Shown here piece after piece: positions 16,273 through 48,500 of a stretch of 64,000 nt of DNA; the first letter of the stretch is position 1; every line of letters starts with the position of its first letter. The position numbers were made by a program, and so were the translations under genes. The DNA lies in assembly GCA_963514005.1 (NCBI GenBank), contig OY740808.1:6572001-6636000 (forward strand), in the 5' to 3' direction. The DNA comes from Raja brachyura (taxonomy: Eukaryota). The notes under the pieces were generated by a model. It made no database searches. It was not told where the DNA came from and saw only the letters and a program-made list of their open reading frames with translations.

Positions 16273-16463
16273 TCCTGTTTCGTGTCCATCTTGTTACAAA
16301 TGTTGGCCTCGTTGTCATCGTCCGTCCTGAAAAGGACGCAAGCTTCCGGCGACAATCAGTGGGAGCCATCACTTGCCGCAATAGATGATGGTGGTAGCAG
16401 AATTAGCTCGGGATTCTTCCCGTTTCCAGCCCCGCGACGTGGACGCTTCTGCCAAGGGGCCTC
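16273..16463 (-). mobile_element. 191-bp non-autonomous Vingi/Ingi-like retroelement with 9-bp TSD, nested in a CR1 fragment
   Basis: tttaaggcc at 16264-16272 and 16464-16472; 5' HDV ribozyme; short ORF start MAPTDCRRKLASFSGRTMT; 3' end ...GGACACGAAA. Confidence 0.7.
16395..16461 (-). ncRNA. HDV-like self-cleaving ribozyme (predicted, 67 nt)
   Basis: Minus strand reads GGCCCC U UGGCAGAA GCG UCCACGU CGC GGGGCU GG AAA CGGGA AGAA UCCCG AG C UAA UUCUGCUA. This gives P1, P2, P3, L3, P1.1, P4 and J4/2 with the catalytic C. Confidence 0.9.
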
Positions 16464-16703
16464 TTTAAGGCCGAGATTGATAGATTCTTAATTAGTGCAG
16501 GTGTCAGAGGTTATGGGGAGAAGGCAGGAGAATGGGGTTAGGAGGGAGAGATAGATCAGTCATGATTGAATGCGGGAGTAGACTTGATGGGCCGAATGGC
16601 CTAATTCTACATTCCTTATGACCATCTGATGAGACATACTGAGCCATTTTATAAATGGATTTTTTGTACTTCATGTGGGTTAATCATCACTTTTCTCCAA
16701 CAG

Positions 16704-25580: not shown

Positions 25581-25798
25581 AAGATAGATGCAAAATGCTG
25601 TGGTTACTCAGCGGGACAGGCAGCATCTCTGGAGAGAGGGAATGGGTGACCTTTCACTGACTGAGTCTGAAGAAGGGTCTCGACCCGAAACATCACCCAT
25701 TCCTTCCATCCAGAGATGCTGCCTGTCCTGCTGAGTAACCCCAGCATTTTGTGTCTATCTTTGGTGTAAACCAGCATCTGCAGTTCCTTCCTACCCAG
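25581..25798. mobile_element. Fold-back (inverted plus direct) copy of the Penelope-derived short element
   Basis: Inverted arms; ggaatctt at 25573-25580 and 25799-25806. Confidence 0.75.
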
Positions 25799-30224: not shown

Positions 30225-30269
30225 GTAAAACAAACTGTTCAAAACTAAGGTATGCAAAAATCAAAAGAG

Positions 30270-31862
30270 ACCAGGGTGCACTACTGGCCACATCTTCCCA
30301 TCTGCACTCCTTTCTGCAGAGACTGTTCCTTCCGAAACTCCCTGGTTAACTTGTCCCTTCCCAACCCAAACTACCCCCTCCCCAGGTATTTGCCCTTGCA
30401 ACTGCAGGAGATGCAACACCTGCCCTTTACCTCCCCCCTCGACTCCATCCAAGGACCCAAACGGTCTTTTCAGGTGAGGCAGAGGTTCACTTGCACCTTC
30501 TCAAACCTCATCTTCTGTATCCGCTGTTCCAGGTGTGTCAACTCCTCTACATTGACGAGACTAAGCGCAGGCTCGGCGATCGTTTCGTTGAACACCTCCG
30601 CTCAATCCGTCTTAACCTACTTGATCTCCCGGTGCCTCAGCACATCAACTTCCCCTTCCATTCCCAATCATATTTTGAGAGGTGGGGGACAATCTCCCCC
30701 ACCCCCCATGTTTTGTAATCCGGATTTTGAAATTCGGTGAAAATTTTTTTATTAAAATCTCCGCTTTCCACGAGGGGTGTCAATGTTAAGCGCTTGTTAA
30801 ATGTCTCTATTAACATTGTATTAACACGATGTGTCACCAATTGTGTTTTGACCTGCAAGTATTACTGAAGGTATTCACAGAGAATTTCTTAGAGGTCTCT
30901 GATGCGGGTACAATTACCATTTGAACTAATTGGATGTATTGGTGGATGGGAAAGATTTAAACGGGTATCTGATTTAAACGGGTCAGGTCATTAAGGGCTC
31001 CGGCCGAACGGGTTTCTTGGCTGGCTTGCAGGTAAGCCCATCATTCACGGTCACTCACGTTGGTTAGTATTTTTTTTGCTTCGTCTGTTTGCCTTTATTT
31101 GCTTCAGTTTTATTTGTTTAAGTGTTATTTATCACATTATAGCTCTTGAAAGATTCAAGCGGGTATCAGATGCTTTCTTAGGGCTGAATCGGCATGTTCG
31201 CGGGGCCCTTTCTTCGCCCGGCGCGGCTTCAAAACAAACTGGTGCGTCGAGGCGATCGAGGCTCCCGATGTTGAAGCCCCCGCCGGCTGATTATAAGCTG
31301 CGCCGGGTGATGAAAGGCCCCGCGAATGGGCTGATTCAAGCCCCACGATTCGGGGCGTACGAAGCTGCTGTTGCTGGAGTTCGGAGTCAGTCACCAACCA
31401 GGTCAGCTCCCGATGTTACCGTCCACAGGGCCGAAGCCTTGCGCGCCACCAAGAAATCGGGGTGTCTCTTCCCCCCCCCCCCCCCAATGTTTTGATAGTA
31501 ATTTCCGCCCCTGCTATCTTGGGCCTCCTCCATTGTCAGAGGCCCAGCACAAATTGGAGGAGCAACACCTTGTATTTCGCTTGGTTAAATTACACCCCAG
31601 CGGAATGAACATTGACCTCTAACTTCAGATGGCCCTCGCTTTCCCTCTCTATCCCCTTCCCAGTTCTACCCACTAGTCTCACTGTTTCCGACTACATTAT
31701 ATCTTTGTCCCGCCCCCTCCCCTGACATCAGTCTGAAGAAGGGTCTCGACCCGAAACGTCGCCCGTTCCTTCCCTCCAGAGATGCTGCCTGACCCGCTGA
31801 GTTACTCCAGCATTTTGTGTCTACCTTCGATTTAAACCAGCATCTGCAGTTCTTTCCTACAC
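30270..31862 (+). mobile_element. Penelope-like element GIY-YIG 3' fragment with terminal hammerhead repeat, interrupted at 30670-31513
   Basis: Frameshifted CIRCSRC/LLYIDETKRRLGDRFVEHLRSI; resumes with LEEQHLVFRL; hammerhead core at 31733-31760. Confidence 0.8.
30670..31513. mobile_element. hAT-like non-autonomous DNA element, left end apparently lost
   Basis: The right end ttccgcccctg resembles a CAGGGGCGGA-type TIR; the repeated subterminal motif is ccccc(a)atgttttg; it splits a Penelope fragment. Confidence 0.5.
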
Positions 31863-32299: not shown

Positions 32300-33060
32300 C
32301 TAGGCCTTAATCTCAAACACCATTACTGATATCATCACTTTTTGCCTTCCACAGCCTCCAACCTTATCGTTTCCTAGCCCCGCACATCCCGTTTTTTACA
32401 TTCTCCCCAAAATCTATAAACGCAACTTCCCTGGCAGACCCATTGTTTCTGGTTGCTGCTGTCCCACGGAAATTATTTCCATGTACCTCAACTCCATCCT
32501 ATTCCCCCTGGGCCAATCTCTCCCGACCTATGTCCAAGACGCCTCACACGCCCTTCGTCTCTTTAATGACTTCCACTTTACGAGCCGCCACTCCAACTTT
32601 ACTATGGACGTTCAGTCACTCTACACATCCATCCCATACCAGGAAGGCCTTAAAGCCCTCGGTTTCTTCCTCAAACGCAGAGCCATCCAATTTCCCTCTA
32701 CTCCGCCTAGCGGAGCTGGTCCTCACCCTCAACAACTTCTCCTTTGACTTCTCCCACTTCCTCCAAGTCCAAGGCATGGGCCCCAGCTACAGTATGCCTG
32801 CCTCTTTGTAGGGTTCGTTGAACAATTCCTGTTCCAGGCGTACACTGGCCCTATCCCAGACCCCTATCTCCGTTACATTGATGACTGCATCAGAGCTACC
32901 CATGCAGAACTCATGGACTTCATCAACTTCACCACCAATTGTCATCCTGCACTCAAATTTACTTGGACCATCTCTGACACCTCCCTCCCCTTTCTTATTC
33001 TCACAGTCTCCATCACAGGAAATAGACTATTGACTCTCATCTATTACGAACCCACTGCCG
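32300..33060 (+). mobile_element. Degenerate Penelope-like reverse transcriptase fragment
   Basis: Frameshifted peptides FTMDVQSLYTSIP, LVLTLNNFSF, LRYIDD and HPALKFTW. Confidence 0.85.
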
Positions 33061-33125
33061 CCCACAACTATTTCGACCACCCAAGTCACACCAGCTTCTC
33101 GTTTTCAACCTACAAACAGCTTACA

Positions 33126-33165
33126 ATGGGTCTGAAGAAGGGTTTCGGCCCGAAACGTCGCCTAT
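33126..33165 (+). ncRNA. Minimal type-I hammerhead ribozyme motif (Penelope-type, dimer-requiring)
   Basis: AUGGGU CUGAAGA A GGGU UUCG GCCC GAAAC GUC^ GCCUAU. Stem I is 6 bp, stem II carries a UUCG loop, and stem III is the palindrome ACGU. Confidence 0.72.
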
Positions 33166-33260
33166 CTCCTTCGCTCCTTAGATGCTGCTGCACCTGCTGA
33201 GTTTCTCCAGCCTTTTGTGTACCCTCGATTCTCCAGCATCTGCAGTTCCTTCTTTAACAC
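33130..33260 (+). mobile_element. 131-bp Penelope-derived hammerhead-bearing short element with 15-bp TSD
   Basis: aacagcttacaatgg at 33115-33129 and 33261-33275. Confidence 0.8.
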
Positions 33261-34149
33261 AACAGCTTACAATGGCCTGTTTCCTTTATCATCGTTACTT
33301 TTTTGCATATCTTTCATTCATTGTTCTTTATCTCTCCACATCATCGTCTATATCTCTCGTTTCCCTTATCCCTAACCAGTCTGAAGACTTGAAACGCCAC
33401 CCATTCCTCCTCTCCAGAGATGCTGCTTGTCCCGCTGAGTTACTCCAGCTTTTTATGTCTATCTGCATAATGGAAGAGTCTGAAGAAGGGTTCCTATCCA
33501 TGTTCTGCAGGGATGCTTTCTGACCCACTGACTTACTCCAGCAGTTTGTGCCGCTCCTTGGTAAACGAGCATCCGCAATTTATTGTTCCTTCATAATGGA
33601 GTCCTTGATTAAGAGGAGCAATTTAGTAATTGCCAAATATGAATCTACAGGCCTCTGGATTGAATGAGAAGCACACCGAGGGAAGTTTAAGAATGTTGGT
33701 TACTTGATCAATGAGGCAAACTACTTGACTCATCGATGATTATATCATAGCACAACTGAAGATTTATAGTGCCAAGCAAAATTGAAAGTAAATCTAATGC
33801 TCGTTTTCTTTTGTGCTTTCATTTTGCCTTCAGAGTGTCTCAGAGCATTTTTTTAGGCTTTATTATAAGTATAGCTATTGTCACGCTCTGGAAAATGTAA
33901 CAAACACATTGTGCAGACCAAGCTCCCAGAAGTAGCAGGTTGATAGGAACATGATAATTTACATTTCGTGATATTGGATGTGGTTTGGATATAACTACTT
34001 TTCTCCTCAAATGCAAAACCCAGCATGAAACCCAATTTAATTTTTAATATCAATGATAAACCTTAGTTCTAACTACGGAAAAGTAGTTTTAATTCTTAAA
34101 ATCTCTGCTCGCATTAACTGACTTTGCATTGCCCTCTTTTATTTTCCAG

Positions 34150-42880: not shown

Positions 42881-45441
42881 TCCCCTCACCATTTAAAACC
42901 CAGCATGTTAGCTAAATTCTTCACCACTTCATTAGTTTAATCAGTAATGATGCTTATTGAAGTTCTTCACCTGGAAAACATGCTTTCTTGCAGAAATGCT
43001 GTGGGGGAGCATTTACTCAATGTTAGAGGACAAGGGAGGTTTTAAACAAATGTTCAAGACCAGTGCAATTGCCAGAAATGTTTCCACACTTGCTCAAACT
43101 AAATTTCAGTCAATTGGACACCATATTAAATGTAACATGAGTGCATATAATTTCTGTAATATCTATTTTAAAAATTTAGTCTGAAAACTGGGAAACTGCT
43201 ATGAATTCAAAACTTAAATTGTACATTCCATGTCTGTCTTTGATTAAAAAGACTGCAAATCATGGATGTGAAAGCAATCAAAATGTAGTTTATAGTTAGA
43301 TTTATACAGTACTTTCAATGATGTGGGACCTTTCAAATCAATTACTGACAGATGAACTGTTAGTTTAGTTTAGAGCTGCAGCGCAGAAACAGGCCCTTTG
43401 GCCCACCAAATTCACACCGGCCAGCGATACCCACACACTATCCTACATCCACTAGAGACAATTACACTAAAACCAAGCCAATTTACCTACATACCTGTAT
43501 GTCTAGTGTGTGGTAGGAAACCGAAGATCCACGAGGGCACAGGGAATTTGTTAATTTGTAGGTAATTAAAACACCTAATTAGCAGTCGCAAACAAGCAAT
43601 CCAACTGTTTACTTAGCATTGCCAGACTAAAAATTACCTTTCATTTCAATGCTATTATGGGATTTTCTTTATCAGAATCTATTTGAGTAAAGATTCAATA
43701 GGTATATCTAAAATCTCTGACTATGCAGCATTCTAAAAGTGTTCAGTTTAAGCCTCGGCCTGTGAACTTTCCACATGTGCTAATATTGTTGCAAACACTA
43801 AATGAGTCCCAGGCATATCTTCTTATAATTCCCTGAAAAAAAATGCTGAATTATAAAACGGCATCATTAGTATATTATTGGAAGTGTCTGGTCAGTATAA
43901 ATCCCGTACCACCAAGATAACAATAGACAGACAGTGTCATTGAACACTCCTGGGTAAAATGTAACAAATGCCAAAATAAGTCGGGCAGTGTTGGGCAAAA
44001 TAAGCTTGTAAAATATTTCAGTAGTGCATCAATGCTTGTTTTTAGAAGACCAATACCAGGCAGTGGTTTGCAAATATTTTAAAATATTTTTGACAGGGTT
44101 GACTTGATTTTTTTTTCCCCCAGTCAAACTCAGTGAGATTCCATTCTGGAATTTCAATTTTAAATCTTATAACAATAACAAGATACACCAGGAAGGAATA
44201 ATATAGTAAAACAAGAAAATCTGTGCAAAGTTAACGAATGCTACCATTTATTAAAGTGACTAACCAATTTTCTGAGCATACTAAGAACATCAACAAAAAC
44301 ATTACATCTGTACTTAACTGGCAGCAAAGATCATACAGAATTTGTTCAATTCTCAACAAGAGTCAAACAGTCTTCAAAATGGAATGAGTATTTCAAAAAA
44401 GGTGTACATACAGGTTCTGTTTAATTGCACTGTTACCTTACAGCATGTTTTAGAAGTGGTAGGTGGCTTGAAGTATACAATTTTTACCATTATACAATAA
44501 CCATTTTTAAAATATAAAATCACCATTGCCCCAAATTTTATTGCCTGTCCTTTACTAGACTAATTGACCACACCAAGTGCAATTTTATCAGCACCAATAT
44601 GGCTGGATTGGTGATGCAATCATGGAAAAGAGAAACCTATTCCAATTAATCTTTGTGTGGATAGCAGGTATCAAATGAAACCATAGAATGTATTGGTTAA
44701 ATGATTTGCAAATCCTCTAATTAAATAATTACTTGTCCTCCTTCAAATAGCTTGATAGAACCAGTATCCTTTTGGAATCTGGTCTACCTTGTTCATAGAT
44801 TTGTAAACTATTCACTATTTTAAGTGCAAAACACCTTTCCAATCCTTGCATAATCCTTCCATTTCATTCAACACCTTGCACTTAACACTTCAATAGTGCA
44901 ACGATGTGCACAGCAGTGGCGAGCCATTATATAGCATAAGGACACAAAAGAAGAACAAGTTGATTACTATTTTGTCCCCATCTAAGCTTGCATGTTACTC
45001 CTTAAAAAAAACTATTGTATTTAAACTTTAACTGTATTTAAATATTTTCCACATCTAAGTTAACTTTCATCCATATAACACAAACAGAAATCCTTTGCTT
45101 TTACAGTAAAACCAAATAGCTCTGCAGTAACTTCACATTACAAACACTGGTTGAGTGAGATATCCTTTTCTAGCTAGAAAAGGGCCTTGTAAATCAAATG
45201 GTTGCTGGATGATATTGTTTGCTTGGAATAAAACATTACCCTTAACCAAAATGAATTTGGAGAATGAATTCCAACATTCAGTTCCTAATTGGGTAAAAGT
45301 ATGTGACGTTCTGCCTTGACCAAGTTAACACACTGAGTTGCCTCAACATTAACAAAGATGTAACATTTTTAATTTTGTACATTTAGACTCTACCTGCTCA
45401 ATTAGCGGCAGAAAAGGACATACATAGAACATACAACAGTA

Positions 45442-45573
45442 GAGTCTGCAGAAGGGTCTCGATCTGAAACGTCACCCATTCCTTTTCTCCAGAGATGATG
45501 CCTGACCCGCTGAGTTACTCCAGCTTTTTGTGCCTGCCTTCGGTTTAAACCAGCATCGGCAGTTCCTCCCTAA
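45442..45573 (+). mobile_element. 132-bp copy of the same short element with 11-bp TSD (core mutated to CUGCAGA)
   Basis: atacaacagta at 45431-45441 and 45574-45584. Confidence 0.8.
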
Positions 45574-48500
45574 ATACAACAGTACGGCACAGGAACAGGC
45601 CCACACTATCCATGCCGAACATGATGCTAAGTTACACTAATCTCCTCTGCCTGAACGCGATCCATATCCCTCCACATCCAGGTGACTCTCCAAAAGCTAC
45701 AAATATCTGCCTCTACCACCAGCCTGGCAGTGTGTTCTGAACACCTACCACTCAGTATAAATAAAAAAAACTTGCCGCAAAATAGACTGGAGGAGCAATG
45801 CAGGATGGTTCAGCAGTCATTAAAATTGGAGCAGCAATAATTTAATCAAAACTTTTCATCATACTGAGAGGCAAACCACTGTGACAGAAAAGGAAAGCTC
45901 TTGGGGCTAAAGGAATCAAGGGATATGGGGGGGGAGCAAGCAGGAACAGGTTACTGGTTTTAGATGATCAGCCATGATTATGGTGAATGGCAGTGCTGGC
46001 TCGAAGGGCCAAATGGCCTACACCTGCACCTATTTTTCTATGAAAATAAGTGCAGCAGTACTATACATGTACATTTCACACATTCAATTAAAGAAATTTA
46101 AAACTTAAAAATAAATAACTTGTCCAGTGTGCAATAAAGATTAAGGAAAAATTCCAGTTCATCTTTAAAACAATAACTAGTGCAAAGTCAAACTGTGCGC
46201 ATTATTAGCAGTACTAAAAACAGACCTTACTGTAGATTATTTTAAGTACAGATGTTTGCAAATGGTAAAGCTGGGCCAAATATGGTACACAGCTTTCAAA
46301 TTGTCAGGTCTATAATACCCTCAACTGGTTTCTTAAAAAGGTACAAGTACACAAGCCAGATTGTAAACAGTGCATATTATTACTAACATTGATTAGAGTT
46401 TCTCTCAAGACTTAAGAACTAACATCCTGCTGTCTGCATTAAGAAAGTTCACTGCCTTGTTTCACATTTCAAAACTTTTTTTAAATATTCGTTTCAGTAA
46501 ATAGATGCCATTGCCCATCTCCAAAAGACCTTGGTGGTGAGCTGCTTTCTTTAACTGTTGCCGTTATTGTGTTGAAAGTGCTCCCTCAATGCTGTCGGAC
46601 TTCCAGGATTTATATTGTGTGATGATGAAGGAGCAATTTATTTCCAAGTCAGGATGGTGCGCGATTCAAAAGCGAAACCTACTCATGAGTCTCAACCCGA
46701 AACGTCACCCATTATTTCTGTCCAGAGATGCTGCCTGTCCCGCTGAGTTACTCCAGCTTTTTGTATCTACCCACAGGGGATGAATTTCCAGTGAAGCTGC
46801 TTCCCTTGTTCCACTAGGTGGTAAGCAGTCATATGCTTGCAAGATGAAAGCAATTGGTTCCGAGAGAAACAATATCGCTTGCCGTCTACCAGAAGTGGGC
46901 ATTCACCCTTCTGCACCTTCTCTACCATTCAATAGGATCATAGACTGATCTTCCTCCACAGCTCCATTTTCACTTACTAACTCCATATGCTTTCATAACC
47001 AAAAATCAAACCCACACTGAATATACACAGCAGTCTCATCTCCACAGCCCTCAAATAAAGTAAAGTAGTCCAAAGATTCATTTCACTCCCCATCAATTAA
47101 GAAATGTCTCTTCCGTCAAGTTCAGAATGTCCCTTATTCAAACTGATCTTTGATCTGTTGAGAAGGCCCTATGAAGAGACATGATCTACATCTATCCTGA
47201 CAAATCATTAAAAAACTTTGTGCATTTCAATTAGATCACTTTCCTTCTTCCAACCTTCGGAGAGTAAAAAATTAGTCTACTTAATTTCTCCTCATAAAAC
47301 AAACATCTCAGAAATTAATCTTTGCTGCACACCCTCCATCATAAGTAAATCCCTTCATTAGGGTAGAGAGGCAGATCTATACACAATATTCCAGTGGCCT
47401 CACCAGGGTTATGGGGAATGTAACCTTTTGGTAACAGGCAAGGTAAAATCTGCTTTTAATCTGAATATATAACATAAAAATATAAATAAGTCAAGATGTT
47501 TAATATCCTTAACCAGGTGCAGGATATTGAGTTTCCCTGGTACTATCCAGCTTGATGTGAAAGATTATCATATCAGCAGCATCAATAATTAATTTAAAAA
47601 AAATTAGTGTCATTATTTAATTGCCATCAATTGTCTTCAGTACACATAACATGATTAATCTGGTCAAATGGTTTTGAAGTATCCAGTTCAGACAGGAGAT
47701 AGATAGATAGTAGCTTTTCATATCTTTGCCTGACCCACCAAGTTCCTCCAGCAGTTTGTTTTTTTTTGTTCCAGATTTCAGCATCTGCAGTCACATTCCC
47801 TCTGTAGTTGCCGATTTGTTTTTGAAATCGTTTAAAGTTAAAAGATTTACCTACAGTTACTTATGAAATCTCCAATCAGTAATTTCAAGATTTCTCATTA
47901 TTTAGCACGTTAAAACATGAAAATCCTGGTTTATCCTGATGTGGACTTTAGATTTTAGGGAAACAGGCCCACCGGCCCACCGACTATGTGCCGACCAATC
48001 TACTGACAAATTGAATATTAGATAAAATAGATAATAATTGCACCGTTCTATTACAGAATTCTTGAAAAATAGTGTTTTCTCGTAACAAAAAAATGTCAGT
48101 TTGTTAATTTTTTGTTCTCCAAGACTGATATTATTTGATGGGAGTGATGGAAGTTTATCAGACTATTAATGCAGGTTGTAATTGTTATTGTGCAGTAGAC
48201 TGCACTAGAACAATTTCATGCACCAGCCAGATTGGTCAAAAACACAATCCTTGATAGGCGAGACAGATTTCGCAGTTAGAAATACTCCTGTCAGTTAAGG
48301 AATGTCAGCTCTAGAAAAAAAAGTACCAATCTGAAACATGAACTCGGCTTCTTTCTTCACAAATGCTTTGCGAATAACAAATAATTTCCAATGCGTTCCC
48401 CCCACCATTTCCCCAAATCCATCCGGAATATCTTGGATCGATCCATGATCCTGTCTTGAAAGTTTATTGAATTTCTAAACTTAACCCACCCCTGCATCCA

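Follow-up and report, generated by a model that had tools for sequence, protein, structure and literature searches.

The window, a stretch of 64,000 nucleotides of the Raja brachyura genome (contig OY740808.1, positions 6,572,001 to 6,636,000), carries several copies of a short unit that belongs to Penelope-like elements (PLEs; Table 1). The copy of main interest is a 131-bp insert bounded by a perfect 15-bp target site duplication (TSD). It starts 2 nt 5' of the sequence CUGAAGA-A-[stem II]-GAAAC-GUC, a hammerhead core whose cut is predicted after position 33159 (core definition: PMC4209133). In the numbering used below nt 1 of the unit is the G at 33130 and -1 is the base preceding it. The insertion target is the 3' UTR of another, broken PLE copy. 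An empty version of this target, with the TSD sequence present once between contiguous flanks, is found in 33 of the 281 loci fetched (at most 6 mismatches in 40 nt; locus L081 among the 33 is the window itself). The 15-bp repeat is a true TSD because the uninterrupted target exists in these loci. The earlier note, which described the direct repeats and a start 2 nt before the hammerhead core from the window's letters, is confirmed on both points.

Table 1. PLE-related features of the window
Feature	Position	Strand	Remarks
Left TSD, 15 bp	33115..33129	+	Its last four bases happen to be able to lengthen stem I of the hammerhead
Solo PLE 5' leader / terminal unit (nt 1-131)	33130..33260	+	96% identity to the corresponding part of L220, a full-length element in a tandem array
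Minimal type-I hammerhead core	33132..33159	+	CUGAAGA, extra A, 4-bp stem II with tetraloop, GAAA, loopless CG, UC
Inner of the family's two 3' end points (nt ~91-99), putative inner RT start site	33220..33228	+	
Tail of ~35 nt, present in some copies and ending at the putative outer RT start site (nt ~126-131)	33226..33260	+	PMC11167929
Right TSD, 15 bp	33261..33275	+	
Host PLE copy: broken RT fragment and its 3' UTR, joined via an internal deletion	32304..33114	+	
Remaining host PLE 3' UTR and the host's own short-ended unit (stem II deleted)	33276..33470	+	
Second solo copy (45442-45573, 132 bp) with 11-bp TSD	45431..45584	+	
Tailed unit closing a GIY-YIG fragment	31731..31862	+	Fragment 30252-30688 and 31517-31619; tblastn match 30252-30688 and 31536-31619
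Head-to-head pair: short inverted arm and tailed direct arm	25581..25794	.	

The second solo copy has the 11-bp TSD, and nearly the length and start point, that the earlier note attributed to it. It begins G-A-GTCTG, 4 nt before a core altered to CUGCAGA, and its leading G is foreign to target and element alike. The claim that the unit also terminates a GIY-YIG fragment is supported by tblastn for the tailed copy at 31731. This fragment is split by an unrelated insertion of ~830 bp (30690-31515). A Pfam search of the broken ORFs of the window found no domains. Two further features lie elsewhere in the window. The segment 25420-25505 resembles a coding exon with GT directly after it, suggesting that the repeats of the window may occupy introns of a host gene. 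On the minus strand, positions 16396-16473 match the Rfam CPEB3/HDV-like ribozyme (36.4 bits for a gathering score of 35, E 4.6e-6) and adjoin a different multi-copy repeat (16464-16630).

Full-length PLEs have the unit at each end, as 5' leader and as 3' terminus. With the host RT fragment as query there are 10,744 candidates, of which 150 are scored matches. The unit closes most RT/EN copies in a set of 20 larger loci chosen largely for their long ORFs, and a search with the 5' body finds it running straight into body and ORF in full-length and tandem elements. About 7 of the 30 loci with 5' body begin at the unit and have non-PLE sequence upstream, as judged by eye. Four full-length PLEs are arranged head-to-tail at C18:46361391-46373530 (L219-L222) with a period of 3965 bp, three of them identical over 3245 nt; they represent a young array or a collapsed assembly. 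The single ORF of L220 codes for RT motifs, IYCIRCSRCQLIYIG and two downstream H, an organization of RT plus carboxyl terminal GIY-YIG with CCHH. The Pfam GIY-YIG score of the L220 protein (E 3e-4, 21.3 bits) is slightly below the 22.6 cut-off and Pfam RT has no match on pieces of this protein. The L220 linker CNRKRCHTC is a CX4CxxC form of the CX2-5CxxC motif before EN, which characterizes Neptune, is missing from Penelope/Poseidon and has a similar counterpart in Nematis according to PMC8557442. By that definition the translated sequence assigns the source element to a Neptune type, not to Penelope/Poseidon. The earlier attribution to Penelope is corrected on this ground; its recognition of a minimal type-I hammerhead in terminal sequence of a PLE holds. 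The hallmarks of EN+ PLEs are present, namely tandem and inverted pLTRs and an optional tail (bimodal 3' ends, 68 inverted pairs). Just beyond the tail of L220 (1505-1520) a splice-donor-like CAAG|GTATG overlaps the first ATG. One unit variant is found behind differing 3' UTR types in L187, L223 and L219-L222, which suggests template switching between PLE subfamilies.

A profile made from 59 near-full copies of the unit has 712 matches that occupy 4.9% of the 1.364 Mb sampled (~520 per Mb). The sample is non-random, being composed of the window and of chosen blocks on 13 contigs, with 464 kb on the window's contig, C30; its extrapolation to the 2.70-Gb genome, subject to that non-randomness, yields ~1.4 million matches. 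An exact 65-mer of the insert's subfamily occurs 147 times in the genome. The young set used below comprises the first 70 loci listed, with 71 of these 147 matches, which heuristic rules class as 41 solo copies, 22 with PLE sequence upstream and 8 inverted. Among 269 5'-intact copies, 79 have an inverted partner and 190 do not. A TSD is detected in 51 of these 190, compared to 9 of 190 shuffled pairs, and its left repeat lies within -6..+3 of nt 1 in about 27-28 of the 51 and in none of the 9 controls. In the young set 25 of the 41 solos have a TSD of 9-19 nt (0-2 in five shuffles). That the unit is deposited on its own, as had been proposed, is borne out by the solo copies, by TSDs exceeding their shuffled controls and by the fixed 5' boundary analyzed below.

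The 3' ends are bimodal, 307 of the 712 matches ending at model 88-106 and 241 at 126-131. Most young solos (32/41) end near nt 95 and 9/41 are tailed. The ~131-bp length given in the earlier note is thus true of the insert but is a minority length. The segment between the two end points (nt ~95 and ~131) is the PLE tail. By analogy with the anole PLE, whose tail is bounded by two internal RT start sites (PMC11167929), the end points would be RT start sites.

A SINE-like family would account for such a population if solos with an internal promoter and both RT start sites were re-transcribed and re-mobilised in trans, most copies then deriving from solos. The very high copy number, the 41 young solos versus 22 PLE-linked copies, the internal promoter of D. 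virilis Penelope (PMC2377424) and a sequence cluster of 27 old copies, the only one of seven to lack PLE-linked members, all agree with this reading. However, PLE-linked members are found in 6 of the 7 clusters, and the exact 65-mer and variants near nt 81-97 are common to solo and PLE-linked copies. Only 3 of the 16 young solos that have no near TSD have a distant one. The copies carry no poly(A) or simple-repeat tail, their ends being PLE sequence, and Rfam gives no tRNA or 5S match over the unit (nor a match to a hammerhead model). An independent SINE-like origin of most copies is considered unlikely.

The 5' ends show a sharp boundary. Their histogram, like that of the TSDs, had been suggested as a check and it is clearly non-random: 364 of the 712 matches start at model 1-4, a share of which (40/177 in one subset) continue into PLE 3' UTR. 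The end is fuzzy at the scale of single bases (-3..+2) and many junctions have up to 32 extra bases of locally copied sequence. In L185, L204, L210, L253 and L270 the 5' junctions include short segments of target or unit, copied again or inverted, such as repeated jumps of the RT would leave. Young PLE-linked copies have 5' ends scattered from about 30 to >1200 nt upstream. This spread is the pattern expected if copies were randomly truncated at the 5' end, and solo pLTRs could also be left by recombination, a process to which rotifer solo pLTRs without TSD are ascribed (PMC3846280). The pile-up of solo ends and the TSDs abutting nt 1 nevertheless contradict truncation, and events between pLTRs would retain part of the upstream 3' UTR. 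Random truncation is refuted for the solo class by the boundary histogram, and truncation and recombination together are left with a negligible probability as the origin of solos.

The hammerhead core is invariant in the consensuses of all seven clusters (249 copies), in which 41 of 64 downstream columns are also invariant. Its features are those of the minimal type I: CUGANGA, an extra base, a helix II closed by G-C, GAAA, a palindromic 15.2-16.2 and UH. The invariance of the core in the seven consensuses suggests that the hammerhead mattered in the source elements. Individual copies decay, with the core motif kept in 73/249; core A and U positions decay about as other invariant positions and core CpGs at 25-32%. 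A per-copy excess of core conservation (3.9% versus 7.0% divergence) was rejected: the set had been chosen for intact 5' ends and base-matched rates leave no clear excess.

Stem I contributed by the element itself has 2 bp in 22/22 PLE-linked copies, short of the 4-5 bp that are usual. The insert at 33130 has a 6-bp stem I, four pairs of which are added by the TSD; the caution expressed in the earlier note about the outer pairs was well founded. Elsewhere the flank adds at most 2 pairs in the 41 young solos and none in the 22 PLE-linked copies, and the 6-bp stem is a chance product of the flank. A preference for targets that complete stem I was also discarded, at least 4 added pairs being present in just 2 of 48 sampled solos, among which the 33130 copy may itself count, and in 0 of 41 young solos. 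For the 33130 copy with its flank the predicted hammerhead-like fold has -11.2 kcal/mol, compared to -33.6 kcal/mol for the minimum free energy structure. The 5' strand of the core is predicted to pair with the tail in the insert's subfamily and not in the 31731 copy. Fold z-scores reach only -0.87 and -1.36. Solo monomer hammerheads are probably inactive, because the source stem I is limited to 2 bp and the predicted fold competes with the ribozyme.

These data bear on whether hammerhead self-cleavage, or a retrozyme-like circular RNA, delimits the unit. The invariant core of the seven consensuses would fit, as would the derivation of animal retrozymes, which have monomer copies, from PLE pLTRs (bioRxiv 10.64898/2026.07.22.740005). 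Yet the cut sets neither end: 16/712 starts lie at 29-33, at the cut site, compared to 20 and 21 in the adjacent bins, and no match among the 712 ends at model 28-32. A second 5' peak at the cut site, suspected from BLAST starts at 36-45, is gone under the profile search. The short source stem I and the decay of the core positions also argue against it, and same-strand pairs within 300 nt are just 18 among 712 matches, irregularly spaced. The hammerhead or retrozyme reading of the genomic ends is largely refuted, and as an account of the unit it is very improbable.

The base at the 5' junction provides evidence on how the boundary arises. In 22/22 young PLE-linked copies the source has CCA or TCA immediately 5' of nt 1, and the YCAGTCT at the unit start fits an initiator consensus. 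The base scored in solos is the first departure from the source CCA/TCA, excluding copies that match through -3 (4/41 young, 41/117 sampled). It is G in 24/37 young copies (12.6 expected) and in 39/76 sampled ones (22.3 expected). A split by TSD origin, in which 63 of the 76 sampled rows entered, places the excess where the base lies outside the TSD (11/14 young with 4.6 expected, 9/15 sampled with 4.9 expected) or where no TSD is found (10/13 young with 4.7 expected, 20/39 sampled with 12.4 expected). There is no excess inside the TSD (3/10 young with 3.4 expected, 2/9 sampled with 2.8 expected). The 33130 copy is ambiguous in this respect since its -1 G falls in the TSD. The G excess is modest in older copies, with no significant excess at -2 alone (16/39, p 0.2), and could alternatively result from plain terminal addition or from remnants of inverted arms. 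Untemplated G was read as a cap mark for L1 and SVA (PMC4859970). Run-off at the RNA 5' end is favoured over truncation because of the untemplated G and because full-length elements share the start point. The earlier alternative of a SINE-like family or a stereotyped truncation product is thus retained for its stereotyped 5' boundary; no separate SINE lineage is seen, solo and PLE-linked copies having the 65-mer in common, and run-off is preferred to truncation. Public poly(A) RNA of a related organism gives a depth of ~570-670x over unit nt ~87-131 and the body, in either orientation, and read ends are loose where the tail stops. The reads over this region, at one locus, show no start or end pile-up, and the coverage agrees with genomic copies being transcribed by read-through.

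The upstream context (pyrimidine tract, CTGAC/CTAAC, CAG) is also 3'-splice-site-like. The boundary might be a splice junction, with a CAG|TCTG acceptor joined to varied upstream exons, or an RT stop at a folded or protein-bound domain. The tract and CAG precede the core in all subfamilies, the ORF stop lies in a GT context, a D. virilis intron terminates at helix I (PMC4209133) and nt 4-13 are predicted to pair with nt 120-129 in L220 with a probability >0.89. Against splicing, a genome-wide count by exact pattern, covering the joined form alone, finds the ORF end joined to the unit just once, and the letters at -2 (A1, C13, G13, T2) reject donor-exon frequencies (p 1e-4). Against stalling, the 31731 copy has no such long-range helix in its predicted fold, the fold z-scores given above are small, and a G foreign to both target and template is left unexplained. 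A junction or stall of this kind is judged improbable. The idea that solos arise when the 3' UTR is spliced out was rejected as well; a microhomology deletion could likewise produce the one exact joined copy. In this copy (L181, C30:19476541-19476574) the ORF end runs straight into the unit and the whole 3' UTR is absent, through a spliced template or a microhomology deletion.

Inverted pairs complete the picture. A TSD bounds 26 of the 68 pairs, compared to 1 control. The 53 pairs with two classifiable arms divide into 40 short+tail, 11 short+short and 2 tail+tail, the mixed class exceeding its expectation of 25.7 (p 6e-5). Together with the excess of G, this short+tail excess favours two primings on sense RNA over antisense self-priming.

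Run-off is the reading we prefer: the insert is probably the first 131 nt of a Neptune-type PLE, integrated alone as a short, internally started cDNA that ran off an uncleaved and likely capped mRNA. A capped Pol II mRNA would start at about -2..+1 of the unit, with its 5' end at CA|GTCTG. Copying of this uncleaved mRNA would begin inside its 5' leader, at nt ~95 or ~131, and the RT would run off the likely capped end, adding an untemplated G. The short cDNA would then integrate by itself with a TSD or as a head-to-head pair. In the latter case both cut DNA ends may be primed, each at a different RT start site, with head-to-head joining of the resulting cDNAs, possibly assisted by a small palindrome around nt 2. 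The hammerhead would be carried along uncut. The geometry between start and hammerhead would differ from that of D. virilis Penelope, because the latter starts 46 nt before an intron whose end lies at helix I (PMC2377424, PMC4209133). A wider proposal, which we put forward tentatively and with slightly less than even confidence, is that a vertebrate genome holds about a million fossil strong-stop-like PLE leader cDNAs, that the capped start coincides with the 5' edge of the hammerhead, that a dimeric enzyme primes both broken DNA ends, using one internal RT start site for each, and that some solos may have given rise to a Pol II SINE-like class.

The origin of PLE tails and inverted pLTRs and the role of the hammerhead are standing questions that these copies address. 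The copies, which can be counted in vivo, support RT initiation at internal sites of uncleaved RNA and suggest that capped transcripts begin at the edge of the ribozyme. They also distinguish sense priming at two ends from self-priming on an antisense template. If the proposal is true, tails and head-to-head pLTRs are explained without an antisense template or ribozyme cleavage. Under the run-off model about 5% of the genome may be by-products of PLE replication instead of active ribozymes, and so may many of the "single" minimal hammerheads and the retrozyme monomers counted elsewhere.

Retroviral minus-strand strong-stop DNA is a short cDNA that extends from an internal, tRNA-primed start to the capped 5' end and is then transferred. 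The product proposed here would work alike without being a member of that class, cut target DNA being the primer and the product being integrated. Single minimal hammerheads, solo and inverted pLTRs, tails and internal RT starts are already in print. In the literature searched, outside of which lie most subscription papers and the Repbase/Dfam entries, no leader-only copies bounded by TSDs and bearing an untemplated G are reported; nor, with most subscription papers again outside the search, is the short+tail arm bias.

The closest known system is PAc, a Poseidon PLE of Anolis carolinensis (Frangieh 2024, PMC11167929), which likewise has a hammerhead at the pLTR-ORF junction and two internal RT start sites enclosing a tail of 30-40 nt. 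Counted from the first base of stem II, the outer RT start lies about 111-118 nt downstream in PAc and about 116-121 nt here. In PAc both DNA strands are cut and extended and the main template is uncleaved RNA, as proposed here (PMC11167929). The element here differs in its Neptune-type linker and in its first ATG, which follows the tail whereas that of PAc is at stem II. Solo TSD-bounded leaders, the 5' run-off point and the untemplated G are seen here and are not described for PAc in the available text of that study. The minimal hammerheads of metazoan PLEs (Cervera and de la Pena 2014, PMC4209133) have the same core, with an extra base after position 9, G10.1-C11.1 and palindromic 15.2-16.2, and are mostly single motifs, opposite-strand pairs being noted. 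In contrast to the reading favoured here, that study ascribes single motifs to truncated PLEs. Helix I usually has 4-5 bp in its set and 2 bp here, as in D. virilis, and the copy number here is about a hundredfold above its largest counts, if the sample extrapolates. Penelope of Adineta vaga (Arkhipova 2013, PMC3846280) shares head-to-head pLTRs, a tail on one arm and an Inr-like pLTR motif, and has TSDs of 8-10 bp; self-priming on an antisense template is proposed in that study, unlike the two sense-RNA primings favoured here. Animal non-LTR retrozymes (PMC7229834; bioRxiv 10.64898/2026.07.22.740005) are also short non-coding hammerhead repeats, related to PLE pLTRs and dispersed as monomers. 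They differ in their head-to-tail tandems, mostly canonical hammerheads and circular RNAs, whereas the family described here has few tandems and its ends bear no relation to the cut site.
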